64,000 nucleotides of DNA, from the IMG/VR virus record IMGVR_UViG_3300045988_174937, one strand, 5' to 3'. Positions 12,640 to 51,465 of the stretch are shown here, one piece after another. Each line of letters begins with the position of its first letter. The first letter of the stretch is position 1. The notes beneath the pieces were generated by a model. The model worked only from the letters and a program-made list of their open reading frames with translations. It was not told the origin of the DNA and made no database searches. Both the position numbers and the translations under genes were made by a program. This DNA comes from a virus.

Positions 12640-12758
12640 TGAAACCGTTGGTATATATACTTAGGTTGGTGGTCCGTGTGGTCATCAACCTCCTTTATTT
12701 TATGGCTTGGAGTGTAGTTTTGGCGTTATTGGCGATGACGATATATTCGCTTGTGTGA
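12639..12758 (+). CDS. Possible 39-aa hydrophobic micro-protein
   Basis: The ATG overlaps the previous TGA. MKPLVYILRLVVRVVINLLYFMAWSVVLALLAMTIYSLV is almost entirely hydrophobic. Confidence 0.35.
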   Translation: MKPLVYILRLVVRVVINLLYFMAWSVVLALLAMTIYSLV

Positions 12759-12794
12759 CGTTTTGAGGATGTTGGTAAAAAAGTTGAAAAATTT

Positions 12795-12869
12795 TCTCCA
12801 AAATATTTTGTAGATTGGAGAAAAGTTACTAATTTTGCTCTTGGAAAAGAAAACTAAACACTCAAAATT
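12795..12869 (+). promoter_or_regulatory. Promoter cassette copy 2
   Basis: TTTG at 12807-12810 lies 19 nt upstream of TAATTTTG at 12830-12837. Palindrome at 12799-12810. Leader GCTCTTGGAAAAGAA at 12837-12851. Confidence 0.7.
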
Positions 12870-13316
12870 ATGAAAGCAACTATTGAAACTATCCGCGAAA
12901 TTGTAAAGGTTCTGACCGCTGACGAACAGCAACTCCTGAAAGACACCTTCCTCTACGGAGGCTGGGGAGACACCGACTACGAGTTCCTTGACGAAAACGG
13001 CAAGACCGAAACCGTTGGTGCTTGGGGCTACTGCACGAACGACGCCCGTGAGGGTGGACACTTTGCTGGTCGTGTCGTGGCTACGATGTTCCGCTCAATC
13101 TACAAGAAACTCTGTACCGCTAACCGTAACCAGATTGGCGCTCACCTTTCGCACTGTAACGACTGGTGGGGTGATGGTAGCGGTGATATGCTGTTCGTGC
13201 GCTCGGCGTGGGATAAGGCGTGGATGGAATGGGCCAAGGAGCCCATCCAGCCCGCTGAAGAGCCCAAGAACGAGGAGCGCCTGACCGACGCCATCAACGC
13301 TTTCCTCGCCAAGTAA
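12870..13316 (+). CDS. Hypothetical protein (first gene of the cassette-2 unit)
   Basis: 148-aa ORF, Trp/Gly-rich (GGWGDTDYEF, CNDWWGDGSGD). Confidence 0.7.
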   Translation: MKATIETIREIVKVLTADEQQLLKDTFLYGGWGDTDYEFLDENGKTETVGAWGYCTNDAREGGHFAGRVVATMFRSIYKKLCTANRNQIGAHLSHCNDWWGDGSGDMLFVRSAWDKAWMEWAKEPIQPAEEPKNEERLTDAINAFLAK

Positions 13317-36277: not shown

Positions 36278-36743
36278 GAAGATTTGGCATATCGGCACAA
36301 CAATCGCTGCTAACAGCGCGTTGAAGGAAACGCCGCCTTACCCTGTACGAGTCATCGTTCGCGTGAAGGATGATAGGGGGAGGGTGAGGTATAACATCGG
36401 TACGCTATCACGCGTCAGTGATGGTAAGTGTGAGGTGAATTTGTTCCCCAATGGTGCGCCGATTACAGCGTCGTTAGGGGTTAACGAAGAGGTTCGCCTC
36501 TGGCCTGATATCGATTGGTTTTGGAAAAAGATGTTTGACGAAGAAGCCATCAAGATAAAAGACTTTTCTGAACTCACCAAGTACCGAGCTGTTATCGTCA
36601 AGTTGGGGAACGCTGAAAACGGGTTTTGTTATAAGCCTGGAAAAGTTGTTGCAATTACCGATAAGAGCGTTGAAATCGACCTTAACAACGGTAGAATTGC
36701 CGTTAAACACGGCCACGAATCACGAGTAAGATTATGGGAGTAG
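36231..36743 (+). CDS. Hypothetical protein with an internal duplication
   Basis: Two ~50-aa beta-rich halves, each ending in VRLW. Overlaps the previous ORF by 47 nt. Confidence 0.55.
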   Translation: MDQRKIIWAVSAAKAEKIWHIGTTIAANSALKETPPYPVRVIVRVKDDRGRVRYNIGTLSRVSDGKCEVNLFPNGAPITASLGVNEEVRLWPDIDWFWKKMFDEEAIKIKDFSELTKYRAVIVKLGNAENGFCYKPGKVVAITDKSVEIDLNNGRIAVKHGHESRVRLWE

Positions 36744-37300
36744 TAGATGAAGTGACGAGGGTATTTCACGAAGCTAATCGATACCGCCACGACCACTTGC
36801 GTAAAGCCATAGGTGCTTTTGAGGGAAGCCTCACCGACGGCGATGCGCTGGAGAAGGCCCGTTCGAAGACAGGGCGGTACGCCAACACGGCCAAGAATCG
36901 GAAATTAGGGCGCGTCGGAATGCCGTATGAAAAGAAATCACGCTTCCCCGCGCCTCATCAGCGTCGAGATTCCGAGCACCGTCAAGAAGGTACGTATATT
37001 CGTACACTTACGGTGGGTGATGGCGCTGAAGCAGTCGAAATAGCCGACGATGGCGTTGCTCGTAACGATTTTTACGATAATCAAGAAGTCGGTAAATACG
37101 CCAAGCGTCATTATGAAAAAGTGAAAAACGGCGACAAGGTTCGTTATGACGGCAAGGTGAAAACCGTTTACGCAACCAAAGAATTGACTGAAAACGGCAT
37201 TACAACGCAGTACGTTCAATTTGTAGGCAGACCGTCGTATAGCGGTGCGCCACGTGGTACAGGTAAGTGGGTTCCGCGAAAAGACGTCGAGAAACTATGA
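36734..37300 (+). CDS. Hypothetical head-module protein with an EKAR..G.YANTAKNRKLGRVG motif
   Basis: 188-aa ORF. Motif at nt 36872-36931. Confidence 0.6.
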   Translation: MGVVDEVTRVFHEANRYRHDHLRKAIGAFEGSLTDGDALEKARSKTGRYANTAKNRKLGRVGMPYEKKSRFPAPHQRRDSEHRQEGTYIRTLTVGDGAEAVEIADDGVARNDFYDNQEVGKYAKRHYEKVKNGDKVRYDGKVKTVYATKELTENGITTQYVQFVGRPSYSGAPRGTGKWVPRKDVEKL

Positions 37301-38229
37301 TTTTCAACAACCGCCAAATAGACGACATGGTCGGTATTCTCCGGCGCTGGCAGTACCTGTTCGTTGCCAAGCACGTCGGACTGGACTTTCTGACCCAGTC
37401 GGAGATCGACATCTTGGTGGCGTCAGGGGTCAACGTCGATAAGTACAAGAACACGAAAGGCATCATCGAACACGCTTTTCTGTTCGGTATCTTGGCTGAG
37501 GCACTCGGCGATCAACGCGCCAAGAAGATGAATTACAAGCAATTTCTCCAGTTCCTGAAGTCGGGAAATTTCGTACCGCTCACCGAGCAGGAGGAAAACG
37601 CGCTCAACTACCTCAAGAACCGCGCCTATACCGACATCACGTCGCTCGGCAACCGTATCGTTACCGGAACACGGAACGCCATCCTCAAATCGAATTTCCG
37701 TCAGCAATCGGTAATACGTCAGCAAATCAAAGACAAGGCTATTCAAGCCGTTCAACTCCGTAAGGGAGCCCGGTATATAGCCAGCGAACTCGGAAACCTT
37801 ACCCAAGACTGGGGACGCGATTGGCTGCGTATTGCGTACTACCTCCTGCACGAAGCCTACAACGTGGGCCGCTCTGAAAGTATTTTCAAGCAACACGGGC
37901 CTGACGCCAAAGTGTATTTCGACGTCTATCCAGGCGCGTGCGCTAAGTGCCGGGAGTTGTACTTAGAAGACCCCGAGGACCCTACCTCGAAACCGAAACT
38001 GTTCCGTTTGGCGGACCTTATCGCTAACGGTAACAACATCGGTCGTAAGGCGGCAGAGTGGCTCCCTACGATTAACCCGACGCACCCCTACTGCCGTTGT
38101 ACGATTAATTACGTTCCTGACGGCTTTGATTGGGACCCCGCAACTCGCGCTTTCACCAAGCCCGTCAAACGCCAGTTTAAGGACCCAAAGTTAAAGAACT
38201 TGAAACTTAACATTAAAGTTACCAAATAA
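37297..38229 (+). CDS. Mu F / SPP1 gp7-like minor head (head morphogenesis) protein
   Basis: C-terminal INPTHPYCRCTINYVP signature. ATG at 37297 forms an ATGA overlap with the previous stop. Confidence 0.65.
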   Translation: MIFNNRQIDDMVGILRRWQYLFVAKHVGLDFLTQSEIDILVASGVNVDKYKNTKGIIEHAFLFGILAEALGDQRAKKMNYKQFLQFLKSGNFVPLTEQEENALNYLKNRAYTDITSLGNRIVTGTRNAILKSNFRQQSVIRQQIKDKAIQAVQLRKGARYIASELGNLTQDWGRDWLRIAYYLLHEAYNVGRSESIFKQHGPDAKVYFDVYPGACAKCRELYLEDPEDPTSKPKLFRLADLIANGNNIGRKAAEWLPTINPTHPYCRCTINYVPDGFDWDPATRAFTKPVKRQFKDPKLKNLKLNIKVTK

Positions 38230-39185
38230 TGAAAAACAAAATCGTACAAGACCCCCCGTTCACTATCCAGGTCGAGCCAACTGAGGGGTGTAACCTGGGA
38301 TGTTCGTTTTGCGGTTTGCGCGGTATGCGTGAAAAAGGTACCAAACCGTGGCTCTTTATGACGCTTGAAACTGCTGAGCGTATTGCGTCGGAAGTGGCTC
38401 GCGTGGGGTGGAAATGTAAAATCGTGTTTGCTATGCATGGCGAACCTACGTTAAACCCTAAGTTGGTTGATATTATCGGCGTGTTTCGTAAGTATTTGCC
38501 GAAAACCGTTTTTCACATGTACACTAACGGCTATGGCATCAACCGCACAGATGATACGGCGGCTTATCTCGACCGTCTGTTCGAAGCAGGAATCAACGAC
38601 ATTTTGGTCGATTGCTATACTGCCAAGGGGGACTGGAATTTTGTGGATAAAATCGACATTGAAAAGTACAACGTCACGGCCCTTGAACCTGGCGTTCCGT
38701 ACTATCTCCCCAAGCAGGGGCGTCGTATTTTGCTGTTGCCGCCACTTACCGAGGATGACATCAACAAAGGAACGCGTCGTCTGGCTAACCACTGCGGCGC
38801 GGCGTTCCCGCTCGACGACTCATTCAACAACAAACGCTGTACTTTCCCGTTCCGCGAACTGGATGTACGTTGGAACGGCCAGGTGTGCCTGTGCTGTGAC
38901 GACTTCCGCGGCGAGTATCCTATCGCCAATATCCACGATATGCCTATCGAAGACCTCTGGAATCATCCGCGCTTCCACGCTGCCCGCGTGATGCTGTACA
39001 ACAACGACCGTCGGTTCCGTCCGTGCCAGGGTTGTACACACGTCAGCGTCCGCGTCGGTTTCCTGCCTGATAAGATGGGCAAGAAAACGCTCCCGCCTAT
39101 CACGCCGGAAATTCGCCGTATGGCTGAGGACGTATCGAAGGACGGCCCCTGCGCCGAGATTTACAAACGGCCATGGGAAAAATAA
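38229..39185 (+). CDS. Radical SAM enzyme with a SPASM/twitch-type C-terminal Cys-rich domain
   Basis: EPTEGCNLGCSFCG (CxxxCxxC), GEPTLNP, then CTFPFRELDVRWNGQVCLCCDDF...IEDLWNHPRF...CQGC auxiliary-cluster motif. Confidence 0.75.
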   Translation: MKNKIVQDPPFTIQVEPTEGCNLGCSFCGLRGMREKGTKPWLFMTLETAERIASEVARVGWKCKIVFAMHGEPTLNPKLVDIIGVFRKYLPKTVFHMYTNGYGINRTDDTAAYLDRLFEAGINDILVDCYTAKGDWNFVDKIDIEKYNVTALEPGVPYYLPKQGRRILLLPPLTEDDINKGTRRLANHCGAAFPLDDSFNNKRCTFPFRELDVRWNGQVCLCCDDFRGEYPIANIHDMPIEDLWNHPRFHAARVMLYNNDRRFRPCQGCTHVSVRVGFLPDKMGKKTLPPITPEIRRMAEDVSKDGPCAEIYKRPWEK

Positions 39186-39853
39186 AGTACCTCTGTGTCG
39201 AGCCGCACGCAGGTGACCTCCTGATGAGCGCTTGTCACGTTTTAGTAGCACCCGAATATGACGTTCGGGTGCTTACTGTAGATAGCGACCCAAAACGCGT
39301 CGAGGAACAGCGCCAACTGTGTGATTTTCTTGGTATAGCTATGGACTATCTGGACCTGGAGTTAGAAGATGTCCGTTGTAGCAATTTTCAGAGCCAATGT
39401 AGGGATTTAAGCTATGAAGCGGTCTATACGTATCTTCGGAATAAATACGACTCTGACGGGCTTAATTTCGCTGAACAAACGCTTCGCGATTATTTGCGTA
39501 AGTTTATGCGCCGCAACCCCGGTTACACGTTACTGGCGCCTCTCGGTGCAGGACACCCGTTCAACCAGTTTATCCACGATACGGTATATGACACGGCGTC
39601 CAGCGCGGAATATTATCGCGACTTCCCTTATTCGTATGCATCGCGAGGCCGTGAACAAGTACGCGTGCAATGTTATAACAGCGAAAACCTACTGATGAAA
39701 CGCCGGGTATCGTGCGACGATATGTTTGACGTTAAGTGGGAGTTGGTTATACGGTTTTATCCTTCGTTGGAAGCCACTATGGATAAATACCAGCGTTTTA
39801 TAGAGCAGAACCCGCCCGAGGAAATATGGTACGAGGGTGAATTACCGTTTTGA
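39173..39853 (+). CDS. PIG-L/LmbE-family deacetylase-like protein
   Basis: LCVEPHAGDLLMS (H-x-x-D as in HPDD) and a later GAGHPFNQFIHD His motif. Confidence 0.45.
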   Translation: MGKIKYLCVEPHAGDLLMSACHVLVAPEYDVRVLTVDSDPKRVEEQRQLCDFLGIAMDYLDLELEDVRCSNFQSQCRDLSYEAVYTYLRNKYDSDGLNFAEQTLRDYLRKFMRRNPGYTLLAPLGAGHPFNQFIHDTVYDTASSAEYYRDFPYSYASRGREQVRVQCYNSENLLMKRRVSCDDMFDVKWELVIRFYPSLEATMDKYQRFIEQNPPEEIWYEGELPF

Positions 39854-39909
39854 CGTTGTGTTCACGTTTTCACAAGTATATCAAACGTGTAAACCTAAAA
39901 TTGCAAAAT

Positions 39910-41337
39910 ATGAAAGTTCTTATTGGTGAATTTGTAATGAGCCCTTACGGAGGCATCGCTGCCTATGTAACGGAGATAATTAAAGGGTTCAAATCTCTGG
40001 GGTGTGATGTCGACTTGTTTCGGCTTTCCCCCAGTAAGATAACCCAAAAGGCGTATGACGCTAAATGTGCTGAGTTGAAATCTGGCGATTATAAGTATAA
40101 GTCGTCGTCGGGTTTTGAATACGACGCAAATGTTGGCTATTGGTGCAACAGCATAGAGGGCTACATGCTTCCGCCCTCTAACCGAATTCCGGTCTACGAA
40201 GAGGGGGCGCTCGAACAGTGGCATAAATTGGCGGACACGGCGGATATCGTTCTATGGAATTTCCTTCCTACGCATAACCGCGCCTGGGAGGGTAAAAACG
40301 GACAGCCGTTCGATTATTGGTACAAATTCTTCGACTTGCCGTCCAGTGTATCACAGGTGTATATCGTGCATGATATTTCGCCTGACAAACGCAATACATA
40401 TCTTTCTGTGCTAAAGGACAAGATTCTGTTCTTGGCCGTTGCTCACCTTGTGGGATACAAATGCTGTGAGAATATCGGCATACCGCGCTCTTTGCTTCTC
40501 AATCCACGCTTTCTTGACGAGAAGAAGAGCCCGGCTACGCCGATGAAGTCGCGCGAGGTGGATTTCTTTGCAGGGCACATTTTCAAGCCAGTTAAGCACT
40601 TGGAAGAGTACATTCGCGCTATTCCGTACATTAACGCCAAGAAGCAGCACACATGTTGGTTGGCGGGTGCAGGAATCGAACAGAACTACATGACGGCTCC
40701 GGTGAAAATTAAGCCGCGATACATATGCTCTAAAACCTATGATCCCGACTTGGACCCGGCCCTTGAGGGTAAGGTTACTATTTGGAACCGGGCCTTGGAA
40801 TGCGGCATGGAGTACTTTGGGCTGTTGAGTGTTAGCCAGGTAAGCGACGTGCTGGATAACGCTAAGTTTGCCATTGACCCGCAATACAGCCCGTATGGTT
40901 CGCTTCATGGCCGTACTCACATAAATGGGTTCATCATCGAAGCACTTGTCCATGGTACATATCCCGTAATACGAGATTATCGTGGCATTACGCCGGAAAG
41001 TCTTACAGTTGAAGACCCGATTTTCGACGTAATGGAAAAGATAGCCATTCCCTGGGATGCGACCCCAAAACAGTTTGCTCAGATGTTAAAAGACGCTTTG
41101 CGTATGGACCCTGAAAAGTACCTCGCTGATACGGACCATAATTACAAAGTGGCTTTGGAATTGTTTAACGCTCGCGCCAATGCTGAAGAAATAATTCGTA
41201 TTTGTAAGGGCGGGAAGAAATATGTCAACAAACACCTGGAATGTGGCGAAGATTCTCCAGAGGTGCAAAAGAGTACCAATAAGATGATGGAAGAATTTTT
41301 CCACATACCACTGCCTCTCAAATGGGAGAACAAGTAA
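39910..41337 (+). CDS. GT-B fold glycosyltransferase (GT4-like)
   Basis: N-terminal MKVLIGEFVMSPYGGIAAYVTEIIKGFKSLGCDVDLF and C-terminal HINGFIIEALVHGTYPVI (E..G...EA...G.PV-like). ATG at 39910 is preferred over 39850. Confidence 0.55.
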   Translation: MKVLIGEFVMSPYGGIAAYVTEIIKGFKSLGCDVDLFRLSPSKITQKAYDAKCAELKSGDYKYKSSSGFEYDANVGYWCNSIEGYMLPPSNRIPVYEEGALEQWHKLADTADIVLWNFLPTHNRAWEGKNGQPFDYWYKFFDLPSSVSQVYIVHDISPDKRNTYLSVLKDKILFLAVAHLVGYKCCENIGIPRSLLLNPRFLDEKKSPATPMKSREVDFFAGHIFKPVKHLEEYIRAIPYINAKKQHTCWLAGAGIEQNYMTAPVKIKPRYICSKTYDPDLDPALEGKVTIWNRALECGMEYFGLLSVSQVSDVLDNAKFAIDPQYSPYGSLHGRTHINGFIIEALVHGTYPVIRDYRGITPESLTVEDPIFDVMEKIAIPWDATPKQFAQMLKDALRMDPEKYLADTDHNYKVALELFNARANAEEIIRICKGGKKYVNKHLECGEDSPEVQKSTNKMMEEFFHIPLPLKWENK

Positions 41338-41339
41338 CA

Positions 41340-41372
41340 ACAGGGGATGCTTTCGAGGCATCCCCTGTTTGT
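41340..41372 (+). terminator. Rho-independent terminator
   Basis: ACAGGGGATGC (41340-41350) pairs with GCATCCCCTGT (41358-41368) as a perfect 11-bp stem, followed by TTTG. Confidence 0.8.
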
Positions 41373-41404
41373 ATGCCAAATATAAGTTTACAAATGCTTA
41401 TTTT

Positions 41405-43159
41405 ATGGTAGAACAATTTGAAAAAGCGAAGCACAACGTCGGCGACCACCACCCTACCCAGCCGTGGGTGTGGACGGAATACAAGCCTGGCAAATTCGAT
41501 TGGCGTCACGAGAAAAAGAACGCTAAACCCAAGCCCAGCGCCGATACTGGCAAAGAGTCGGGTAATTCGGGTCCTGTGACGAGTCTTGAAGCGTGGGCCA
41601 AGAAGACCAGCGACGATAACCTTTTGAAGGTTGTTAACAACCCTAAAGGCAGCGCCCAGTTGCGGCATATTGCCTACAACGAGTTGAAATCTCGTAACGC
41701 CGATATGTCGCAGGTGGACACCAGCGGAACGCTGTCCACGTTGCTGAAGATGACTACTCAACAGGACCCTGTTGCGCCTACCACCACCGGAGCCAAGGTG
41801 GACATCAACGACGGCGAGGGCGGTAACGACGATGGCGAAATCGTCGAAGACTGGTTCCTCAACCCTGAGGACCCGCGCATTCAGAAAAAGTTCAACAAAC
41901 TCCAGAGCCGTCAAGACCGTATCGCTTACGACCGCTTCGTCTATGCGATGAAGAAAAAGGACCCCGATTACGAACCGCCCGTTGAGGTCATGTACGACCT
42001 GAACCGCCAGTATCTGGAGTTCCTCGATAACAAGGAGCAGCGGTTCATGATATCGGCTGGCGGTGCAGGTATCGGTAAATCTTACGGTTTCAAGAAGATT
42101 GCCGAACTGCTCAACAAGCGTCCGTTCGACGCTGAAACCGACTCTCCGGGTGACGGCGACTATGACTACGTTGAACTCGGCGATATCAACTCCAAGAAGC
42201 AACTGCTGGGCGTACTGAAAGCCCACAACGGTAAGATTCTTCTGTTCGACGATACCGATTCCGTTATCACCCGCACCGACCTGGCTTCTATCATGAAGAA
42301 AGCCACCGCCGCTTCAGGTAAGCGCGTGGTCGGCGACCCGGAGGACGTCAAGTCGAATTTCGTATTCACGGGCCGTATCATTATCATGACCAACAAGGAC
42401 CTCGTGAATCTTTCGAAGAACGAGGACACTAAGGCCATCATTTCGCGTGCTACGCTGACGTCGGAGGTATATCTTACCGTCGATGAAACTATCGAGGTTC
42501 TGAAGGACCGCTACGAGGAAATGGACATCCCCCAGCAGCCGCACCTCGAAGACCCCGAAGAGGACAAGAAGGAGCGCAAGGAGCTGTACGACCTTATCGT
42601 CAAGAATAAGAACAAAATCGACCCCGCTAAGTTTACCACCCGTACCTTTGGAACCATCCTGTCGGAGAAGCGTTCTACCGACCGTTCTAACAGGATGGCC
42701 AAGATAGGCGGTGAGTGGACCAACCTCATCGGCGATAAGCAAAAGGAGTGGGAGCGGGCCGCAGTACGTGCACTGACGAAAGGATTCGTGTACGAGGCCA
42801 TCCAGCCCGTCGAAACCTCCGACGAGATAGCCAAGGCTGAAGCGCTGCTCGACTCCGCAGAATCGCTCGAAAAGGCCGATTTTACCGAAAAGCAGCGTGA
42901 GCGTCTTGCCGACAAAAAGGAGGCTCTCCCTGACGGTTCGTTCCCGATTCGTAACAAGTCCGACCTGAAGAACGCCATCCGTCTGGCCGGCAACGCCAAG
43001 AATCCTGAACGCGCCCGGCGTTGGATTAAACGCCGCGCCAAATCGCTCGGTGCCGAGGATATGATTCCCGATACGTGGAAAGCCCGTGCCACGGACCTCG
43101 GTGCATTACCCGCCGACGATATGTCGATTGAAAAAGCAGAAACCCTTTTGTTCGGATAG
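41405..43159 (+). CDS. AAA+/P-loop ATPase domain protein in the virion module
   Basis: Walker A SAGGAGIGKSYG, Walker B KILLFDDTD, sensor-like IIIMTN. N-terminal HEAT-like LLKVVNNPKGSAQLRHIAYNELKSR. ATG at 41405 is preferred over TTG at 41369. Confidence 0.6.
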   Translation: MVEQFEKAKHNVGDHHPTQPWVWTEYKPGKFDWRHEKKNAKPKPSADTGKESGNSGPVTSLEAWAKKTSDDNLLKVVNNPKGSAQLRHIAYNELKSRNADMSQVDTSGTLSTLLKMTTQQDPVAPTTTGAKVDINDGEGGNDDGEIVEDWFLNPEDPRIQKKFNKLQSRQDRIAYDRFVYAMKKKDPDYEPPVEVMYDLNRQYLEFLDNKEQRFMISAGGAGIGKSYGFKKIAELLNKRPFDAETDSPGDGDYDYVELGDINSKKQLLGVLKAHNGKILLFDDTDSVITRTDLASIMKKATAASGKRVVGDPEDVKSNFVFTGRIIIMTNKDLVNLSKNEDTKAIISRATLTSEVYLTVDETIEVLKDRYEEMDIPQQPHLEDPEEDKKERKELYDLIVKNKNKIDPAKFTTRTFGTILSEKRSTDRSNRMAKIGGEWTNLIGDKQKEWERAAVRALTKGFVYEAIQPVETSDEIAKAEALLDSAESLEKADFTEKQRERLADKKEALPDGSFPIRNKSDLKNAIRLAGNAKNPERARRWIKRRAKSLGAEDMIPDTWKARATDLGALPADDMSIEKAETLLFG

Positions 43160-43162
43160 TTT

Positions 43163-45544
43163 ATGGACGAACTGAGAAAAGCGCTGGAAACTTTCGCCCT
43201 CCGTAATGCCGAGGGCGATGTTTCTGACGCCGTATTGGAGAAAGCCTGTGAAGCGTACAAGGCCCGTTCCGAGTTCGTCGATGACTACGAGTACAGCCTG
43301 TATGTAACCAAGTCGTTGTACGACCATCTCCACGGCGTTGAACAGGACCCGGATATCGTAAAGGCTATCATGCCTGGTCAGACTAAGGTAGTCAATGGCG
43401 TGGTGTACATTTGGACGCTTACACCAAACGCCAAAACTACCTACGACTGGCGTGTGTACAAGAATCCTCAAGGCATACCTGTTGGAAAAGGGGCTTTTCG
43501 TTCCAAAGTCATGTTGGCTCAACAGGAAAAGGAGGTGAATGAAATGTTCCCCGCCGACCCCTCGCAGCTGACCTTTGTACAGAAATTAGGCGGTTCCACG
43601 GGAGCCGTCCTGATGAAGGATGCCAAGGGCCGCGAATTTGTCGTCAAGAGTTCAAAGAACACCAATCGCGGTCACGTTGCGGCAGAGTACTACGCCGCGC
43701 AGGTGTACAGTCTCTTGGGGTTGGACACGCCGGACTATGAGTTGTATGACGACGGCACCGACCTGACGCTTATCTCGAATTACATGCGTGGTATGTCCGA
43801 ACCCCAGGTTAAGGACTATGACGCCATGGCTAAAGGTTTTGTTGTTGACGCCTTTCTGGCCAACTGGGATGTCTATCAGAACGACAACTGCCTGGTAGAT
43901 GCGGCAGGAAAGGTTTACCGCGTCGATAATGGCAGTGCGTTCAATTACCGGGCACAAGGAGCCAAAAAACCGTTCAACGACCAAATCGACTGGGACGGCA
44001 TGGTACGCTACAATCCCAGTATCATAGCCAACCTCAAGCCACAGGATTTTATTGACCAGATTGACGCGCTTAAAGCCCGTAAAGAAGAAATTCTGGCATT
44101 TTTCGACGCTGGAAGATTGGCGTCGAAGCCTAAGATGCGTGCCATAATCGAGGCCCGATTCAAGGACCTGGACCGCATCCGCGGGTACTACGAGGTTGAG
44201 TTGCGCCGCACCACGCGCCAAGTTAAACCTCGGACGCTGAAATCTCAAGCGGATATGTACCGCGAATTTACAGAGGACGAGGTGAACGATTTTTGGCAGA
44301 ATCAGGACGGTGGCGCCTACTATCGAAAATTACAAAGACACGGCGGAGATACCGGGTGGGAGTTGCTTTCCACCATTTGTGCCGCTCGTGGTTTTGATGC
44401 TCGCCCCGATGTCGTTGACGACGCTGCGTTCTGGGCCAAGGCGGCTTCGGCTAAGTATCATATGTTCCGCGGCGTTGCCCCGCGTGGAAGCGACAAAAAC
44501 TACTTTGCCGACGACTTCAAATACAACGACGCCTGCTATTATGGAACTGTTGGTATCTACGGCGAGGGAATTTATTTTCACGTCAACGACTCCAGCAACG
44601 CCGACCGCACTCCTTCGGGATACAAAAAGACTTCGGCATACCATAACGTACTCGGATACGCTGGCGCTGGCGCCGTTATTGAGGCGTGTCTCGAGGACGA
44701 CGCCAAGGTCATAACCGTCGCGGACGCCATGGAGGAGGTCAGGCAGTTGGCTGCTGGTAACTCAGCAGCACTGAAAGCCGCACAGGCCGAACTCGACAAC
44801 GCTAAGGCCGAATATGACCGTGTCAGCGACGAACTCGAAAACCTTACCGATAACACCAAGAAGCAGGTTAAGTCCAGTATGCACTGGGACGATGCTTCGT
44901 ATATCGACATTCCGTTGCAGATTGACCAAATAATCGACTGGGGTGCTATCGACGATGACGGCAACCCGGCGTACATGAAATTCGACGACTTCATGGACAA
45001 CCACCTCCGTGGCTGGGTCACCGCTAACGGCGGCACTATCACGGAAAAGGGTAACGGTACGGGCGATTACGTTATCAAGATGCCGAATACGGCGGAACGG
45101 TTCGTGTTCTCGCGCTATCGGTACGAGAACGACGCCATCAAGCGCAAGAACGGTTTCGCCCGCCCTTACAACTACCCCGTTCGCCAGTTCAAGGAATGGA
45201 TTATGCGCGAGCACTACGGTAAAATCGAGGACGCTGTGGAAGAAGCCGTTAACAACCTCGGCGACGAAATCAAGCGTCTTCAGGGAGAGCAGCGTAAAGC
45301 GTACACCGTTTATCAGGATAAGCGCGATGCGGTGAGCAAAATCAACGTAACCTCTGTTGGCGACCCTGATAAGGATATCTATGCCGCTATTTACAAAAGC
45401 GTTCATGAGGGCCACGATAAGGAACCGTTGGGAGTTTATGCCGCTTTGAAAGGATACGACGCTCTCATCCAACCCAACGGTAACTACTGTGGTAACTCCT
45501 TCATGATTGTGCTGAACCGCTCGAAAATCATTACTCGAAAATAG
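43163..45544 (+). CDS. Polyvalent protein: atypical protein-kinase-like domain + ADP-ribosyltransferase-like domain
   Basis: Kinase-like KLGGSTGAVLMKDAKGREFVVK ... DAFLANWDVYQNDNCLVD ... YRVDNGSAF (nt ~43565-44062). ART/PARP-like MFRGV ... GIYGEGIYFHV ... SAY ... GAVIEACL (nt ~44345-44722). Confidence 0.55.
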   Translation: MDELRKALETFALRNAEGDVSDAVLEKACEAYKARSEFVDDYEYSLYVTKSLYDHLHGVEQDPDIVKAIMPGQTKVVNGVVYIWTLTPNAKTTYDWRVYKNPQGIPVGKGAFRSKVMLAQQEKEVNEMFPADPSQLTFVQKLGGSTGAVLMKDAKGREFVVKSSKNTNRGHVAAEYYAAQVYSLLGLDTPDYELYDDGTDLTLISNYMRGMSEPQVKDYDAMAKGFVVDAFLANWDVYQNDNCLVDAAGKVYRVDNGSAFNYRAQGAKKPFNDQIDWDGMVRYNPSIIANLKPQDFIDQIDALKARKEEILAFFDAGRLASKPKMRAIIEARFKDLDRIRGYYEVELRRTTRQVKPRTLKSQADMYREFTEDEVNDFWQNQDGGAYYRKLQRHGGDTGWELLSTICAARGFDARPDVVDDAAFWAKAASAKYHMFRGVAPRGSDKNYFADDFKYNDACYYGTVGIYGEGIYFHVNDSSNADRTPSGYKKTSAYHNVLGYAGAGAVIEACLEDDAKVITVADAMEEVRQLAAGNSAALKAAQAELDNAKAEYDRVSDELENLTDNTKKQVKSSMHWDDASYIDIPLQIDQIIDWGAIDDDGNPAYMKFDDFMDNHLRGWVTANGGTITEKGNGTGDYVIKMPNTAERFVFSRYRYENDAIKRKNGFARPYNYPVRQFKEWIMREHYGKIEDAVEEAVNNLGDEIKRLQGEQRKAYTVYQDKRDAVSKINVTSVGDPDKDIYAAIYKSVHEGHDKEPLGVYAALKGYDALIQPNGNYCGNSFMIVLNRSKIITRK

Positions 45545-45545
45545 T

Positions 45546-45962
45546 ATGAAAAAGAAACCACAATACGGTATATCGCGCATGCGGACAACCTCGGTTGTTG
45601 GCGGTATGGCGTCGCCGTATGTAAATCTTAAACAACCCTCGGAGTTGATACCGTTCAAAGGCGATTTGCCGATGCTGAACGATATTGACGCCATAAAGTT
45701 TCGTGATACTATTCGCGAGACGCTATCGTTGGACGAGTTGAGTCCTCTGTTCCAGCGTGTGGCCATGGAGGGTCATCGTATCGCAATTATGGAGGACGGG
45801 TTCACGCGTTACCTCCGGAAGCAAGGTATTACGCCTGGCGAATTTGTAAAATTAAGCAACTCCGATAAATCGGATTACTTGCTGGATTGGATGAACATGA
45901 ACTCAATCAGTTTGGAATCGCTTAAAATTACAGTACACCATGGCGAACATTACGTACAATAA
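45546..45962 (+). CDS. Hypothetical protein
   Basis: 138-aa ORF. Confidence 0.6.
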   Translation: MKKKPQYGISRMRTTSVVGGMASPYVNLKQPSELIPFKGDLPMLNDIDAIKFRDTIRETLSLDELSPLFQRVAMEGHRIAIMEDGFTRYLRKQGITPGEFVKLSNSDKSDYLLDWMNMNSISLESLKITVHHGEHYVQ

Positions 45963-46464
45963 TCCTTCGGCATTCGCGATTAACGACACCGTGAAGGACC
46001 TTATCAGCCGCGTGGCTGACGCTACTAAAAACCCCGACGTCGTTATCACTTCGACGTTGCGTACTCCTGAAGCCCAGGCCAAGGCCATGGCCGATAACCT
46101 TTACGCCGGCAAGCGTATTCGTTACCGCGCTCCGGGTGCGGCCGTCACCAAGGTATTCGACGACAACTGCAAGAAAATGGCCCGTTCCGAGGTTGAGAAA
46201 CTGATGGTGGCTGAAATCGAACGTCAGGCCGCCATGGGTCAGCGCGTATCGCTTCATTGCACGACGGAAGAGTTGTATCGCCAGTGTAACATCATCGACC
46301 TGTCGATTGTGCGAATGAAGAATCCGCGTGACTTCACCAACGCGTTGGCCAACGAGGAAAAGTGCCGCAAGATTATCACGCCGCTGAGCGACGTAAAGTA
46401 CGCCAGCGCCAAGGTATCTGTAGACGCCAACGAACCCGCGTTGCACGTTGAAATTATGGCGTGA
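45940..46464 (+). CDS. Peptidase M15-like (VanY / L-Ala-D-Glu peptidase-type) cell-wall hydrolase, tentative
   Basis: ITSTLRTPEAQ, VSLHC...IIDLS and EPALHVEI fit the SxH..D...H zinc-ligand order of the M15 fold. Confidence 0.45.
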   Translation: MANITYNNPSAFAINDTVKDLISRVADATKNPDVVITSTLRTPEAQAKAMADNLYAGKRIRYRAPGAAVTKVFDDNCKKMARSEVEKLMVAEIERQAAMGQRVSLHCTTEELYRQCNIIDLSIVRMKNPRDFTNALANEEKCRKIITPLSDVKYASAKVSVDANEPALHVEIMA

Positions 46465-48377: not shown

Positions 48378-49937
48378 ATGTTTAAGGACGATAAATTCAA
48401 TTTCTGGTGTCCCATCGGACGCATCGAGAAGGCCACCGACGAAGCGGGAGAACCCGTTATGCGTATCGGCGGTATTGCCTCTACTATGGATAAGGACGCC
48501 GACGGAGAGTATTTGGACCCCTCGGGGTTTGACGTCGAGCCGCTGAAGAACTCCGGAATGGTCAACTGGCACCACCAGGCCAAGAACTCTCCAGCCGCTA
48601 TCATTGGCGAACCGTCGAAAGTAGAACTGCGACCCGAGGGTCTTTGGATAGAAAGCGACCTTTACGCTTCGTCCCCTATGGCCAACGAGGTCTATGAATT
48701 GGCCAAAACCCTCGAAGAGGACAGTAAGACGCGCCGCCTGGGGTATTCCATCGAGGGAAAGGTTCTGAAGCGTGGTTCTAACGACAAGAAATCGCCTCTT
48801 TACAACAAAATCGTCAAGGCTGTTATTACGGGTGTCGCCGTAACACACATGCCCAAAAACCCGCATACGTTCGTTAACATCATCAAAGGTCAGGTGGACG
48901 CTGACGGTATTGAGGTTGAATTGGAGGAAGAGGACGATAACACCGAAGAGCGTGGTGGTAAAACCGAGAAAAAGGCTCTGACTACAGAGTCTGGTGCGGC
49001 GTTGGTTCCGGAGTCAGTTGATGGCCAGCCGAAGAAAACGTTTTCCAAATCTTCCGTCATGGAAGCTATCTTCCGCGATATTCCAAATATTACAATACCG
49101 AATGCGCACGAAGTGTATACACTAATCAAAAATATATCGGTTATGAACAAACGCAAATCCATCACTTCCGAGGACATCGAGAAGGCATACGATGCTCTGG
49201 GGCTCACGCCCGAGGGTAAGGCTTCCGGTGCTGAAGACGTGCAGAAAGGTGACGACGCCGACGGTCAGATGGGTAAGGAAGACGAAACCCATGACGACGA
49301 ACCGCGTCACAATGCCGCCAACATGCGTAACGCTAAGGCTGGCGAGAAGGAGGAATCCGAAGAGGAGACCGAGGACGATGACGAGGGCTTCGAGCAGTGC
49401 GACAAGAACGGCGCCAAGATGAAAAAGGGTGGCAAGATGAAGAAAGGCGGCGATGTCGACCTCCTGAAAGCCATTCAGGACGTTGGTAACGATTTCAAGT
49501 CGTACATCAAAGCCACGGCCGTCTTGGTGAACGATCTTCGCCAGAAACGCGCTGAGGACGCTAAGCGTATCGCCGAACTGGAGAACATCATCAAGGGCCA
49601 GACCGATGTCATCGAGGGCTTCGCTACCAAACTGGAACGCTACGGCAGCGAGGTGCCGCGTCCGAAGTCGCTGCGCTCGGCTACGGTTATCGACCGTGCG
49701 TTTGCTAAGGGCGCCGGCAAGGGTGACATCGAAAAGGGCGGCGATACCGCTCGCATCTCGCTCCGCGAGAACCCCCGCGCCGTTGCTTCGTTGCTCGACC
49801 AGGCGTCGTTCGCTAAGGGCTACGACAAGGAGTACGGCGATGCACTTTTGGCGTTTGAGGCACGTCCCGGTGACGGTCTCCCCAAGAACATCATCGCTCG
49901 TCTCAAGGCCGAGACCGGGTACGAGGTAGTAGAGTAA
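48378..49937 (+). CDS. Prohead protease fused to a scaffold-like acidic/coiled-coil C-terminal region
   Basis: N-terminal ~170 aa resemble HK97-family prohead proteases (GIASTMDKDADGEYLDPSGF..NWHHQ..GYSIEGKV). Charged helical C-terminus. Lies directly upstream of the capsid gene. Confidence 0.55.
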   Translation: MFKDDKFNFWCPIGRIEKATDEAGEPVMRIGGIASTMDKDADGEYLDPSGFDVEPLKNSGMVNWHHQAKNSPAAIIGEPSKVELRPEGLWIESDLYASSPMANEVYELAKTLEEDSKTRRLGYSIEGKVLKRGSNDKKSPLYNKIVKAVITGVAVTHMPKNPHTFVNIIKGQVDADGIEVELEEEDDNTEERGGKTEKKALTTESGAALVPESVDGQPKKTFSKSSVMEAIFRDIPNITIPNAHEVYTLIKNISVMNKRKSITSEDIEKAYDALGLTPEGKASGAEDVQKGDDADGQMGKEDETHDDEPRHNAANMRNAKAGEKEESEEETEDDDEGFEQCDKNGAKMKKGGKMKKGGDVDLLKAIQDVGNDFKSYIKATAVLVNDLRQKRAEDAKRIAELENIIKGQTDVIEGFATKLERYGSEVPRPKSLRSATVIDRAFAKGAGKGDIEKGGDTARISLRENPRAVASLLDQASFAKGYDKEYGDALLAFEARPGDGLPKNIIARLKAETGYEVVE

Positions 49938-49977
49938 ACACCCAAACAATTTTCCATAACATAATCAATTCCAAACC

Positions 49978-51465
49978 ATGGACAGACTTTCTATCAATCT
50001 CGCCGACTATGGCATCCAAGCGCGTGGTGCTCAGTACGGCTCGTCCAGCCAGGAAGAGGTCGCTATGCTGAACAAAGCCCTCGAAGCAACCGACATCACG
50101 GGTCGTCAGACGACGAACCTTACCGATGCCTCGGGTGCTCCGCTGAAGGTGGAGTCGCTGGAGCGTACTCTGAAACACCTGACGTTCCGCGAGAGCGACA
50201 TCGTTCTCTGGAAGAACCTGCCGAAAAAGGCCGCCTACAACACCGTTGAGGAGTACAACCAGCTGGCATCGTATGGTGCTGACCGCGGTGGCTTCACCAA
50301 CGAGGGCGAACTCCCCGACGAGGAGGACTCGATCTACATCCGCCGGGCTCAGCTGGTGAAATACCTCGGCGTCACCAAGTCGGTTACGCACCAGATGACC
50401 CTCGTCAACACGATGGTGGGCAACATCATGGAGCGCACCATCAAGGACGGTACGCTGTGGATTCTCCGCAAGCTGAACAAGTCGCTGTATTTCGGCAACT
50501 CGGACATCATCCCGCAGGAGTTCAACGGTCTTCTGGCTCAGCAGTTGCAGTCGGACGCATGGAGTGGCCTCGACGCCTACCTCAACTCCGAAAACGTTAT
50601 CGACCTGCGCGGTCGTGGCCTGACCGAGGACCCCATCGAGACCGCCGCCAACTCGATTGTCGAGAACTACGGCCTCGGCACGGAGCTGTACGCTCCCCCT
50701 GCCGTGCTGTCGGACTTCGTCAAAACGTTCTACGGCAACAAGTTCATCCAGCCCAACACCGCCCAGACCAGCGCCGGTATCATGGGTCAGCGCGTTCAGG
50801 CGTTCGACTCGCAGTTCGGCCGCATCGGCCTCAACTACGACGTCTTCTTCAAGAAGGCACCGTTCAAGATGGCTGGCGCTCAGTCCACGCATCCCAAGTC
50901 GCCCGCCGCTCCCGTATGGGACCCTGCTGCTGCGGCTACGGTTGTGGCTGACACGACGACCTCGAAATTCAACTCGGAGGATGCCGGCAACTACGTTTAC
51001 GCCATCGCGGCTATCAACCGCCACGGCGAGTCGTCGCTGGTAGTCAACGAGACCCCGGTTGCCGTAACGGCAGGCTCGGCCGTCGACCTCAAGTTCTCGA
51101 TTACCGACAACGCTCACCCGGCTACGGGCTATCGCATTTACCGCACGAAGAAAGGCGGTACCAAGGACAGCAAGTTCTACCCGATTTTCGACATCTCGGT
51201 GGCTGAGCTGAAACTTGGCTATGCAGGCGCTGCCGGCGACCTGTGCCGTGACAACAACTATTTCCTGCCCGACTGCGACCAGGCGTTCCTGGTACAGTTC
51301 GACAACGAGGTCATCGAGTTCGCTCAGCTGGCCCCGCTGATGAAGATGGACCTGGCGATTCTGTCGCCCGCGTACCGCTTCATGGTGCTGCTGTACGGTA
51401 CGCCGTTCCTGTACGCTCCGAAGAAGATGGTTCGCCTCATCAACATCGGCCGCGCTTCCAACTAA
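49978..51465 (+). CDS. Major capsid protein
   Basis: 495 aa, positioned after the protease/scaffold and followed by a very strong terminator. Contains an Ig/FN3-like segment. Confidence 0.6.
   Translation: MDRLSINLADYGIQARGAQYGSSSQEEVAMLNKALEATDITGRQTTNLTDASGAPLKVESLERTLKHLTFRESDIVLWKNLPKKAAYNTVEEYNQLASYGADRGGFTNEGELPDEEDSIYIRRAQLVKYLGVTKSVTHQMTLVNTMVGNIMERTIKDGTLWILRKLNKSLYFGNSDIIPQEFNGLLAQQLQSDAWSGLDAYLNSENVIDLRGRGLTEDPIETAANSIVENYGLGTELYAPPAVLSDFVKTFYGNKFIQPNTAQTSAGIMGQRVQAFDSQFGRIGLNYDVFFKKAPFKMAGAQSTHPKSPAAPVWDPAAAATVVADTTTSKFNSEDAGNYVYAIAAINRHGESSLVVNETPVAVTAGSAVDLKFSITDNAHPATGYRIYRTKKGGTKDSKFYPIFDISVAELKLGYAGAAGDLCRDNNYFLPDCDQAFLVQFDNEVIEFAQLAPLMKMDLAILSPAYRFMVLLYGTPFLYAPKKMVRLINIGRASN

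Follow-up and report, generated by a model that had tools for sequence, protein, structure and literature searches.

By a 2021 count, only two phage protein kinases have been characterised, gp0.7 of T7 and Stk of 933W (PMC8008677). A 'HipA-family kinase domain protein' has also been described in the 'Gratiaviridae', gut phages with genomes of 99.8-107 kb in the published table (Benler et al. 2021, Microbiome 9:78; PMC8008677). In all kinase-bearing Gratiaviridae, genes for a glycosyltransferase, an AAA-family ATPase and the kinase follow one another in this order between the portal and capsid genes. The published proposal is that the kinase acts late and brings about superinfection immunity through envelope modification (PMC8008677). 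HHpred matches the same gene family to HipA at 99%, which suggests remote homology (PMC8008677). A second point of reference is the kinase of polyvalent proteins, a Ser/Thr/Tyr kinase core without the C-lobe, whose conserved catalytic pair, His..Asp, comes with an insert and whose last N-lobe strand bears a Gln (PMC5512222).

We analysed a window of 64,000 nucleotides of viral DNA that carries a locus of the Gratiaviridae kind. A complete ORF on the plus strand (43163-45544; ATG start, 793 aa plus stop) is present as a sequence-only reading of the window had listed it, together with every motif string quoted there. That reading did not include the published kinase or the envelope-based role proposed for it. 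Two plus-strand genes precede the ORF in the published order. The first (39850-41337, 495 aa) occupies the place of the glycosyltransferase and has a syntenic counterpart of 483 aa in L003; it has no Pfam or PDB sequence match, and the glycosyltransferase label is not borne out by its sequence. The second (41369-43159, 596 aa) encodes a P-loop/AAA-type ATPase with the Walker A motif GGAGIGKS, a weak AAA_30 match (E = 0.032), a match to phrog_1250 (1.5e-11) and a syntenic 631-aa counterpart in L003. The 793-aa ORF is packed tightly against its neighbours, with gaps of 3 nt upstream and 1 nt downstream.

The wider interval is bounded upstream by the portal gene (28616-30397, plus strand; phrog_12, E = 1.9e-44) and downstream by a plus-strand block (48378-51465) of prohead protease (48378-49937) and major capsid protein (MCP; 49978-51465), recognised through phrog_1028 (3.4e-33), phrog_752 (1.2e-87) and SU10_MCP. 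The MCP is closest to those of Bacteroides phages, with 49% identity to the MCPs of phages DAC19-23. This placement between portal and protease/MCP is conserved, being kept in a homologue with 39% identity. The gene had been described as lying among head genes downstream of MuF; the head-gene setting is correct, but a Pfam search finds no MuF domain in any ORF of the portal-to-MCP interval. Because the interval also encodes non-structural enzymes, namely a radical SAM/SPASM protein, a glycosyltransferase-like protein and the ATPase, position alone is no proof of packaging.

The protein has 208 full-length homologues of ~790 aa each, all unannotated, and family members lie on contigs of 96-100.5 kb. 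NCBI, IMG, ENA and Logan all contain the exact 793-aa sequence under the name 'hypothetical protein', and the contigs that carry it reach ~99.8 kb. It matches no PHROG family, and we found no cultured phage or relative that carries the gene. The resemblance to the Gratiaviridae extends from the place of the gene, directly after the glycosyltransferase and AAA ATPase genes and between portal and MCP, to ~100-kb genomes from human-gut metagenomes, contractile tails, Bacteroides and Parabacteroides, and a remotely HipA-like kinase domain. Judged by gene order, genome size and habitat, the protein is almost certainly the Gratiaviridae 'HipA-family kinase domain protein', and its kinase is therefore already known.

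A confident AlphaFold2 (AF2) model (mean pLDDT 88) confirms the kinase that had been proposed from sequence: residues ~128-345 (43544-44197, plus strand), also delimited by profile search and conservation, are modelled as an atypical protein-kinase-like domain with an intact catalytic apparatus. When the full-length model is compared with the PDB using Foldseek, the best 50 matches are all protein-kinase-like folds (E from 8e-5, probability 1.00), headed by the amicoumacin kinase AmiN (8e-5) and including the Src family, PI3K-gamma and Vps34. Against BFVD, Foldseek returns numerous kinases of viruses, along with a protein labelled 'PI3K/PI4K catalytic domain'.

The active-site elements appear in the expected order on the plus strand. 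A Gly-rich loop, G143-G-S-T-G-A148, and the strand-3 lysine K162 (43589-43648) fall within KLGGSTGAVLMKDAKGREFVVK (residues 141-162), and the string AAEYYAAQ includes E175. The catalytic loop D229..N234-W-D236..D241-N242, contained in DAFLANWDVYQNDNCLVD (residues 229-246), is followed by the metal-binding R253-x-D255-N-G257, the DFG equivalent, which overlaps VDNGSAF (residues 254-260); together they span 43847-43933. With PKA serving only as a ruler, K162 corresponds to K72, N242 to N171 and D255 to D184, and E91 is matched as well. Among 35 family members, the most distant at 38% identity, these motifs vary little or not at all. They are also retained across 107 independent modules from other proteins: K162 in 103, E175 in 104, D236 in 101, N242 in 103 and D255 in 103, with GGSTGA kept in 92-102 and each residue of the catalytic loop and of R253-x-D255-N-G257 in 98-104. 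As sequence patterns, the kinase motifs are thus far beyond chance.

Curated families place this kinase only at a distance. HipA_C and HipA_2 are the only Pfam families matched recurrently, the former by 14 of the 35 family members (best E 0.0042) and the latter by 7 of 30 modules (best E 1.7e-5), both below the gathering cut-offs. On the kinase segment itself HipA_2 scores 14.6 bits against a Pfam cut-off of 27, a value that the best relative (P0163, 22.8 bits) does not reach either. PI3_PI4_kinase (PF00454) is matched by 3 of the 30 modules, again below the Pfam cut-off (best E 0.025); APH and PI3_PI4_kinase appear as Pfam matches in single members. The best PDB sequence match of the module profile is a choline kinase (E = 0.12). 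The profile searches that had been suggested for both domains thus yield sub-threshold HipA_C, HipA_2 and PI3_PI4_kinase matches, but no ART-PolyVal match on the 793-aa protein and no curated threshold passed. Neither HipA_N nor Couple_hipA matches the 793-aa protein, and the flanking genes are the ATPase and small ORFs, with no HipB-type antitoxin among them. The domain is nearest to HipA and PI3/4-kinase, and we predict an active kinase as part of the joint explanation developed below, to which we give about an even chance.

A profile search for the kinase family gathers 5,777 representatives, mostly through the kinase module; the family has no Pfam model, and the module passes no curated Pfam cut-off. 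The company that the module keeps points to the virion. In 45 sampled independent proteins, 24 carry a head-protein fusion: Phage_Mu_F in 15, a portal domain in 8 and Phage_min_cap2 in 1. The same 45 proteins contain ART (11), NUDIX (5), 2H/LigT (2) and RelA_SpoT (1) partners. In P0195 the domain order is portal, NUDIX, kinase and Alt-type ART; Alt-type ART domains adjoin the kinase module in other proteins too, and BFVD contains a further portal fusion (A0A6J5S481). Such head-protein fusions of related modules suggest delivery into the host with the DNA and, on this basis, a packaged and injected effector is plausible. Head delivery also draws support from the placement between portal and MCP and from the C-terminal half of the second domain, which in compact homologues matches phrog_16619, 'minor head protein'. 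Against packaging stands the 793-aa protein itself, in which neither a MuF nor a portal domain is present; nor was a MuF gene found nearby.

The published proposal accounts for the same locus in another way. On this view the kinase would not be passed on to the next host. Acting at a late stage in the cell that makes the phage, and jointly with its glycosyltransferase and AAA ATPase neighbours, it would change the envelope or capsule and so give temporary immunity to superinfection by other phages (Benler et al. 2021). The glycosyltransferase-ATPase-kinase order in all kinase-bearing Gratiaviridae (PMC8008677) argues for this, as does its preservation both here and in the 39%-identity homologue. 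The tight packing of the three genes suggests that they are co-expressed, and the missing MuF or portal fusion fits a protein that stays behind. However, more than half of the 45 sampled module proteins contain a head-incorporated partner (MuF, portal or minor capsid protein 2), often together with Alt-type ARTs or NUDIX domains, a hallmark of injected effectors. Late expression, too, is just what one would predict for a packaged protein, T4 Alt being an example (PMC5512222, PMC9503650), and sequence searches do not bear out the neighbour's identity as a glycosyltransferase. We regard superinfection immunity as an unlikely role, albeit one of the two strongest competitors of the explanation favoured below.

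Downstream of the kinase lies a second, split domain. In its N-terminal half (residues ~385-520; 44315-44722, plus strand), delimited by alignments A3 and A7, PDB profile matches and hhalign, strand 1 carries R436-G437 and is followed by the motif G467-E-G-I-Y471-F-H; next come a helix whose last residue is Y499 and then strands 3 and 4. Its C-terminal half (residues 755-793; 45425-45541, plus strand), recognised by co-occurrence with the first, contains the A760-A-L-K-G764-Y-D766 strand and the N778-S-F780-MIVL-N785-R786 strand, which is the equivalent of ART strand 5 and has no Glu. The two halves always co-occur, and in P0175, P0163 and the compact homologues only a short stretch separates them; they are one domain, split by an insertion of ~230 residues between strands 4 and 5. 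The extent given in the sequence-only reading, ~395-520, omitted the C-terminal part.

The lineage-specific insertion (residues ~521-754; 44723-45424, plus strand), modelled with pLDDT mostly above 85, is made up of a bundle of helices, a small alpha/beta unit with W593, G623-G624 and P641, and a long hairpin of helices. It is missing or short (~60-95 aa) in the repeats of P0175, in P0163 and in the compact homologues P0266-P0282. At the other end of the protein, residues 1-125 (43163-43537, plus strand) form a family-specific domain in which, by DSSP of the model, a small beta-hairpin unit (PGQTKVV..YIWT..YDWRV) comes after three helices. This N-terminal domain is limited to family members, and the neighbouring genes lack it.

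The split domain had been read as an ADP-ribosyltransferase (ART)-like domain from MFRGV (434-438, with R436), GIYGEGIYFHV (464-474, with Y471), SAY (491-493) and GAVIEACL (503-510, with E507). Part of that reading stands: no lineage varies at R436, G469, Y471 or Y499 (alignments A3 and A7), and profile matches below threshold are to PARP and diphtheria-toxin proteins only. The proposed catalytic Glu does not stand. The residue, which is number 507 and not ~518, sits on the third strand of the domain and varies among E, S, D, M, L and K in family members, and the true strand-5 position is S779-F780; E507 is thus rejected as the catalytic Glu. In most lineages the strand-5 position is Tyr or Phe, with Glu, Asp or Gln only sporadic (P0149, P0154, P0175 repeats 2-4, P0274). 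Because E507 is not the catalytic Glu and strand 5 has none, the dual kinase and ADP-ribosyltransferase activity claimed for the protein is not established. The macro-like gene at 4532, proposed as a matching eraser, gives no macro-domain signal.

Which superfamily the split domain belongs to is suggested by remote comparisons. Two independent profiles searched against 177,635 PDB sequences gave 26 and 27 matches, all of them catalytic domains of tankyrase or the diphtheria-toxin family, at E of 0.15 or more. In hhalign the domain scores 61-69% with tankyrase-2 and as much as 56% with a segment of 7rb4, against controls in which shuffles stay at or below 0.7% and the kinase profile at 0.2-0.4%; PARP1 reaches 4-9%, and PARPs align with the N-terminal half only. 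In the tankyrase-2 alignment R436 falls on the triad His and Y471 on the triad Tyr, and in the compact homologues the Tyr-to-Tyr spacing equals that aligned in tankyrase. The order of secondary structures in the model (strand 1, helix, strand 2, helix, strands 3 and 4, then 5 to 7) is that of the ART core. From these weakly supportive sequence comparisons we tentatively assign the split domain as ART-superfamily-like, of PARP or diphtheria-toxin type, a component of the Gratiaviridae kinase protein that would have gone previously unnoticed.

Two better-known ART groups were considered and set aside. Membership in ART-PolyVal (PF18760, H-Y-D) is ruled out by the lack of a Pfam match on the 793-aa protein and by an hhalign value of 0.3% to a genuine ART-PolyVal domain (P0172). 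The Alt/VIP2 R-S-E group is ruled out likewise, with no match to PF03496, no STS or ExE motif, and 0.5% in hhalign to the Alt-type domains of relatives. P0175 does match Pfam ART-PolyVal at 2.3e-5 (25.6 bits against a cut-off of 31.2) and PARP at 2.4e-3, and its single repeats match ART-PolyVal at E 0.04-0.05.

A second competitor, which we also doubt, allows the protein a single activity: the split domain would be a novel or unrelated fold that regulates, targets or capsid-anchors the kinase, with a PARP-like motif that arose by convergence. The domain meets no curated threshold of Pfam, NCBIfam or PHROG, its C-terminal half does not align to PARPs, and strand 5 carries no conserved catalytic acid. 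Its family-wide invariants in the C-terminal half include D766 and N785-R786, which are not classical ART motifs; G764 is invariant in all lineages as well. Structure comparison, proposed earlier as a check on both domains, matched the kinase folds. Among the best 50 PDB matches of the full-length model, a list filled by kinase-like folds, there is no ART, and the isolated fragment 376-531, a partial domain that lacks the three C-terminal strands and has lost its beta structure, returned only noise (best E = 0.25). A convergent motif would nevertheless have to explain why two profiles pull only H-Y-E-clade ART catalytic domains out of the whole PDB set, why hhalign gives 50-70% to two different ART templates, and why R436 and Y471 land exactly on the triad His and Tyr with the spacing preserved. 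The Glu, Asp or Gln found at the strand-5 position in some lineages also speaks against it.

Least probable, at a small fraction of the chance we give the favoured explanation, is that the kinase acts on a small molecule, lipid or glycan, perhaps inactivating a host antiviral metabolite or signal while the NAD+/ADPr-like pocket of the second domain binds the same or a related nucleotide: AmiN, PI3K-gamma and Vps34 among the top structural matches, the choline kinase match, the single-member APH and PI3_PI4_kinase matches and the NUDIX, 2H/LigT and RelA_SpoT partners typical of nucleotide-centred conflicts would fit, but HipA-type protein kinases are the most frequent family-level affinity (HHpred 99%; PMC8008677), Src-family and other protein kinases score equally well in Foldseek, and none of the kinase similarities tells substrates apart.

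The explanation that we favour, with confidence evenly balanced, is a late-expressed, head-delivered effector of a 'Gratiaviridae'-type Bacteroides myophage, in which an N-terminal domain, a kinase, an ART-like domain and an insertion are combined, so that one protein carries two effector-type domains (the kinase and the putative ART-like domain). The 793-aa protein would be made together with the head proteins, be built into the capsid and enter the next host with the DNA. There the kinase, presumably of Ser/Thr type, would phosphorylate host proteins and so promote host takeover or blunt defences, much as HipA acts on aminoacyl-tRNA synthetases and T7 gp0.7 on RNA polymerase and RNases. The PARP-like domain, akin to the NAD+-binding core of PARP- and diphtheria-toxin-type enzymes, would most likely bind NAD+ or an ADP-ribose-containing ligand or substrate; any NAD+-dependent chemistry would be at most that of a Glu-less mono-ADP-ribosyltransferase. 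Mono-ART PARPs without the Glu exist as H-Y-I, H-Y-L and H-Y-Y types.

Few phage protein kinases are characterised, yet this module is extremely widespread without passing a curated Pfam cut-off. Its MuF and portal fusions beside ARTs, NUDIX and RelA/SpoT tie it to the capsid, and this link offers a concrete and testable alternative to the published guess at its role, for a family of Bacteroides phages that is common in the human gut. A bolder version, which we think improbable, holds that the split Arg-Tyr-aromatic domain is an unrecognised Glu-less ART branch coupled to a head-delivered kinase, and that the module marks injected kinases as a major overlooked takeover route. If its first part were true, phosphorylation of host targets at the very start of infection would be linked with NAD+/ADP-ribose sensing or with an ADP-ribosylation that needs no Glu; the second part builds on 5,777 representative clusters of the module, which is often fused to MuF or portal proteins. 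Members of the proposed branch would stand alone in actinobacterial elements and form tandem repeats in giant phage proteins, and the one described here would be broken up by an insertion. Should the split domain truly handle NAD+ or ADP-ribose, an unusual Arg-Tyr-aromatic branch would be added to the ART superfamily, and kinase and ART-like chemistry would be combined in one injected protein; should it not, the finding reduces to the already published kinase annotation.

Compared with known systems, the protein is a relative rather than a copy of each. With the HipA family it shares the protein-kinase-like fold and an atypical catalytic loop, but the module is set apart by its signature (GGSTGA, NWD, DN, R-x-DNG) and is housed in phage head-associated multidomain proteins. 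PI3K-gamma and Vps34 match at the level of the fold, whereas the DRHxxN catalytic loop of PI3K/PI4K is absent here and reads NWD..DN; the module's motifs resemble those of type II PI4K. Identity with the polyvalent-protein kinase of Iyer et al. 2017 is ruled out by a catalytic loop without His (A-N-W-D) and by the lack of a conserved Gln on strand 201-206; the Pfam family of that kinase is also not among the 25 most frequent families listed for family members and modules.

With PARP, tankyrase and diphtheria toxin (H-Y-E), the split domain would share its secondary-structure order, the strand-1 x-[RH]-G and the G-x-G-I-Y-F donor-site motif followed by a second Tyr. It differs in having Arg for the triad His and Ser-Phe at the position of the catalytic Glu, in its own invariants D766 and N785-R786 and the 230-residue insertion, and in reaching no significant sequence or structure score. 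The Gratiaviridae description (PMC8008677) annotates the kinase domain only, and mentions neither the split PARP-like domain nor the module's wide spread and its MuF, portal and ART fusions. Polyvalent proteins, MuF- or portal-fused effectors and the T4 Alt paradigm (PMC5512222, PMC9503650) differ from the 793-aa protein in that it lacks a MuF, portal or metallopeptidase domain and its ART-like domain is neither of the H-Y-D ART-PolyVal nor of the R-S-E Alt/VIP2 type. It resembles them in joining several effector-type domains in one late polypeptide from the head-gene region, and in carrying the kinase module that elsewhere is truly fused to MuF, portal and ART domains, with ARTs as the commonest partners.

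The open reading frame at 43163-45544 (+) begins with ATG and encodes 793 residues; in the ORF listing, 3 nt separate it from the upstream gene and 1 nt from the downstream gene. All of the motifs quoted in the sequence-only reading, which had proposed a packaged and injected protein combining kinase-like and ADP-ribosyltransferase-like (ART-like) domains, are found in its sequence. As a single query, the protein gave no significant match in Pfam, PHROGs, or PDB sequences, and a nucleotide search among cultured phages returned no match. The exact sequence is present in NCBI, IMG, ENA, and Logan, labeled "hypothetical protein." Its 208 full-length homologues (~790 aa) are metagenomic, lie on contigs of ~96-100 kb, and carry no annotation. 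Searched against PDB sequences, a full-length family profile recovered coiled-coil noise only.

We aligned 35 family members with identities down to 38% and found that the invariant residues fall in three clusters along the protein. One covers the kinase motifs (K162, E175, D229, N234, D241, D246, R253, and G257) and another the "FRG ... GxGIYxH" region (R436, G437, G469, Y471, and H473). The third, which was unexpected, occupies the last 40 residues (G757, A760, A761, K763, G764, D766, G773, N774, N785, and R786). An AlphaFold2 model built from this alignment has a mean pLDDT of 88. The N-terminal domain is family-specific and does not recur in the neighboring genes; the idea of a capsid-targeting module common to it and those genes was rejected (all E > 0.09).

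When the model was compared to the PDB with Foldseek, the best 50 matches were all protein-kinase-like folds, among them the amicoumacin kinase AmiN (8e-5), Src-family kinases, PI3K-gamma, RNase L, and Vps34. In BFVD, one full-length family member matched (3e-63), and the remaining matches hit the kinase module within a portal fusion, within giant proteins of Gordonia and Mycobacterium phages that are labeled "ADP-ribosyltransferase," within a "PI3K/PI4K catalytic domain" protein of a halovirus, and within many kinases of giant viruses. An exhaustive profile search retrieved 5,777 representative proteins at E ≤ 1e-3 and 3,208 at E ≤ 1e-10, with most matches confined to positions ~128-340 and located within proteins of 600-3,400 aa. 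The kinase family is very large and has no Pfam model.

Across 107 independent kinase modules, the catalytic set is nearly invariant. GGSTGA is retained in 92-102 of them, K162 in 103, E175 in 104, D229 in 103, N234 in 104, D236 in 101, D241 in 98, N242 in 103, R253 in 100, and D255 in 103. A statistically weak greedy profile alignment (P = 0.017) to what we take to be the PKA sequence and its landmark residues, which served as a ruler only, places K162, E175, N242, and D255 opposite K72, E91, N171, and D184. Just three family-level Pfam affinities recur, all under curated cut-offs: HipA_C in 14 of the 35 family members, HipA_2 in 7 of 30 modules (best E = 1.7e-5), and PI3_PI4_kinase in 3 of 30. 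The best PDB sequence match is choline kinase (E = 0.12). By motifs and model, this region is therefore an active-looking, atypical protein-kinase-like domain nearest to HipA and the PI3/4-kinases. The fold matches and near-invariant catalytic residues show that the kinase call was correct, but this domain is already in the literature. In a homologue with 59% identity (P0015), NNWSAYAPDHSLVD replaces ANWDVYQNDNCLVD at alignment columns ~270-300 and RINLGG replaces RVDNGS; this lineage, with its degenerate kinase motifs, may be a pseudokinase variant. The module also occurs in tandem, with five copies in P0140 (3,416 aa) and three in P0150 (3,130 aa), both giant proteins.

Sub-profile mapping showed that residues ~380-530 and 751-793 always occur together in the relatives retrieved. 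The spacer between them is only ~60-95 residues in two of these relatives, P0175 and P0163; it is equally short in a set of 17 compact homologues of 220-390 aa that stand alone, such as that of Nocardia brevicatena. The two halves thus make up one domain, which in the target is interrupted by a lineage-specific insertion, residues 521-754. The domain's family-wide invariants are R436, G469, Y471, Y499, G764, D766, N785, and R786. Besides four tandem copies of this split PARP-like domain, P0175 itself contains an Alt-type ART. At the N-termini of the compact homologues P0271, P0275, P0276, and P0278 we observed a conserved "W-x-E-S-x-H-P-R-x-x-x-G-R-F" motif, with a weaker form in P0274; it could mark proteins of actinobacterial phages or elements for processing or incorporation.

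Over its repeats, P0175 gave sub-threshold Pfam matches to ART-PolyVal (2.3e-5; 25.6 bits versus a cut-off of 31.2) and PARP (2.4e-3). A profile of the insert-excised domain matched 26 PDB sequences, all of them tankyrase PARP domains, at "GMFGAGIYFAENSSKS" (E = 0.15-0.6). A second, independent profile, built from the compact homologues, matched 27 (E of at least 0.5), comprising 26 tankyrases and 7rb4, a diphtheria-toxin-family C domain that aligned over ~94 positions from "HVYRGVS." With hhalign, the sequence that we presume to be tankyrase-2 scored 61-69%, pairing MFRG with LFHG and GEGIYFH with GAGIYFA, and the real 7rb4 segment scored up to 56%. Among the controls, no shuffled sequence (20 per comparison) exceeded 0.7%, the reversed sequence reached 6%, and the kinase profile gave 0.2-0.4%. 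Secondary structure elements in the model follow the ART-core order: strand 432-438, a helix, strand 470-474, helix 491-500, strands 504-510 and 516-518, the insertion, and strands 767-770, 779-783, and 789-792.

The ART-like domain reached no curated threshold anywhere. Insert-excised constructs and the P0175 repeats yielded only ART-PolyVal (E = 0.04-0.05) and PARP (0.17) in Pfam and nothing in NCBIfam; hhalign to PARP1 gave just 4-9%, and the C-terminal half did not align to PARPs. Residues 376-531 folded alone gave only Foldseek noise (Lrp family, E of at least 0.25), from a model that lacked the C-terminal partner strands and lost its β-strands. The OspC3 and CopC rows for this fragment (E = 4-6) are not evidence. 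Assignment of the split domain to the ART-PolyVal or Alt type is rejected (hhalign < 1%).

E507, which had been named as the catalytic glutamate, is rejected, as it is not conserved in the family alignment. The strand-5 position corresponds to S779-F780; most lineages have Tyr or Phe there, and Glu, Asp, or Gln turn up only sporadically. Mono-ART PARPs that lack the glutamate do exist. Overall, the split domain probably adopts an ART-superfamily fold. That it transfers ADP-ribose is doubtful, and NAD+/ADP-ribose binding or target recognition seems more likely. The ART reading is new and plausible from the profile and hhalign signals, but it is unproven and its catalytic residue was wrongly assigned. 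Neither Pfam nor PDB sequences yielded a match that would back the macro-like reading of the gene at 4532-4999 (+), which has no hit in either and falls in phrog_2072, a PHROG of unknown function (E = 3.7e-31).

The published kinase belongs to the "Gratiaviridae," a group of Bacteroides and Parabacteroides phages that have contractile tails and ~100-107 kb genomes and come from human-gut metagenomes (Benler et al. 2021, Microbiome 9:78; PMC8008677). Its gene lies between portal and major capsid protein (MCP), directly preceded by genes for an AAA ATPase and a glycosyltransferase. Benler et al. suggested that it acts late, conferring immunity to superinfection by modifying the envelope; a second domain and packaging go unmentioned (PMC8008677). 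We found no functional follow-up of this kinase in the literature. Searches for packaged kinases of MuF, portal, or HipA type gave nothing relevant beyond that study and the Iyer/Aravind papers.

A Pfam scan covered 45 independent proteins carrying the kinase module. Phage_Mu_F is present in 15, portal families in 8, and Phage_min_cap2 in 1. Other partners are ADPrib_exo_Tox (8), NUDIX (5), ART (PF01129; 2), 2H/LigT (2), ART-PolyVal (1), and RelA_SpoT, InPase, and SAM lyase (1 each). One relative, P0195, runs portal, NUDIX, kinase, Alt-type ART, and the module sits upstream of a C-terminal Alt-type ART in Pseudomonas phage Dolphis gp117 and E. coli phage ECML-606-1 gp47. Fusion to MuF or portal is the accepted mark of effectors that are packaged in the head and injected (PMC5512222, PMC9503650), and the fusions of module relatives therefore lend packaging real, if indirect, support. 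The target itself has no MuF or portal domain. It had been placed downstream of MuF, but the ten ORFs between portal and target contain no MuF Pfam match, and a large search with a 691-aa MuF candidate (33984-36059 (+)) was saturated by unannotated, near-identical copies and so gave no information. Also counter to packaging, the portal-to-MCP interval holds a radical-SAM/SPASM enzyme and the glycosyltransferase/ATPase pair. Backed by the module's fusion partners, the proposal that the target is a packaged effector competes reasonably with the published hypothesis.

The radical SAM and SPASM-domain enzyme (38229-39185 (+); Pfam 3.5e-14 and 2.8e-12) lies midway between portal and capsid, and such a peptide- or protein-modifying maturase is unusual within a head-gene region. 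Just ahead of it, the ORF at 37267-38229 (+) has a weak "head maturation protease" PHROG match (2.6e-5), besides the strong prohead protease at 48378-49937. The 691-aa protein shares an N-terminal module of ~120 aa with the ATPase at 41369-43159 (31% identity, E = 1e-6) and a "Y-x-[DN]-[NT]-x-x-N-R-[RK]-L-x-R-V-G" motif with a 188-aa protein (36734-37300 (+)); these common elements may serve assembly or targeting. Near-identical versions of the 691-aa protein occur by the hundreds, on ~97 kb contigs, so the phage is very common. Two genes downstream of the target, a 174-aa gene (45940-46464 (+)) is syntenic with a Peptidase_M15_3 gene (12745-13185) at L003, the locus of a homologue with 39% identity, which suggests a cell-wall peptidase in the same gene block.

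As a kind of protein already known, the target would be a head-associated multidomain phage effector. The portal occupies 28616-30397; the protease and MCP together span 48378-51465. The nearest matches of the MCP come from Bacteroides phages (49% identity), and gene order is preserved at L003. A 495-aa gene (39850-41337 (+)) takes the position of the published glycosyltransferase, a call that Pfam and PDB sequence searches did not reproduce. The position of the AAA ATPase is taken by a 596-aa gene (41369-43159 (+)) with the Walker A motif GGAGIGKS, a weak AAA_30 match (E = 0.032), and membership in phrog_1250; PDB sequence searches of these two genes gave no informative match. In its gene arrangement, the window exactly matches the Gratiaviridae locus (PMC8008677).
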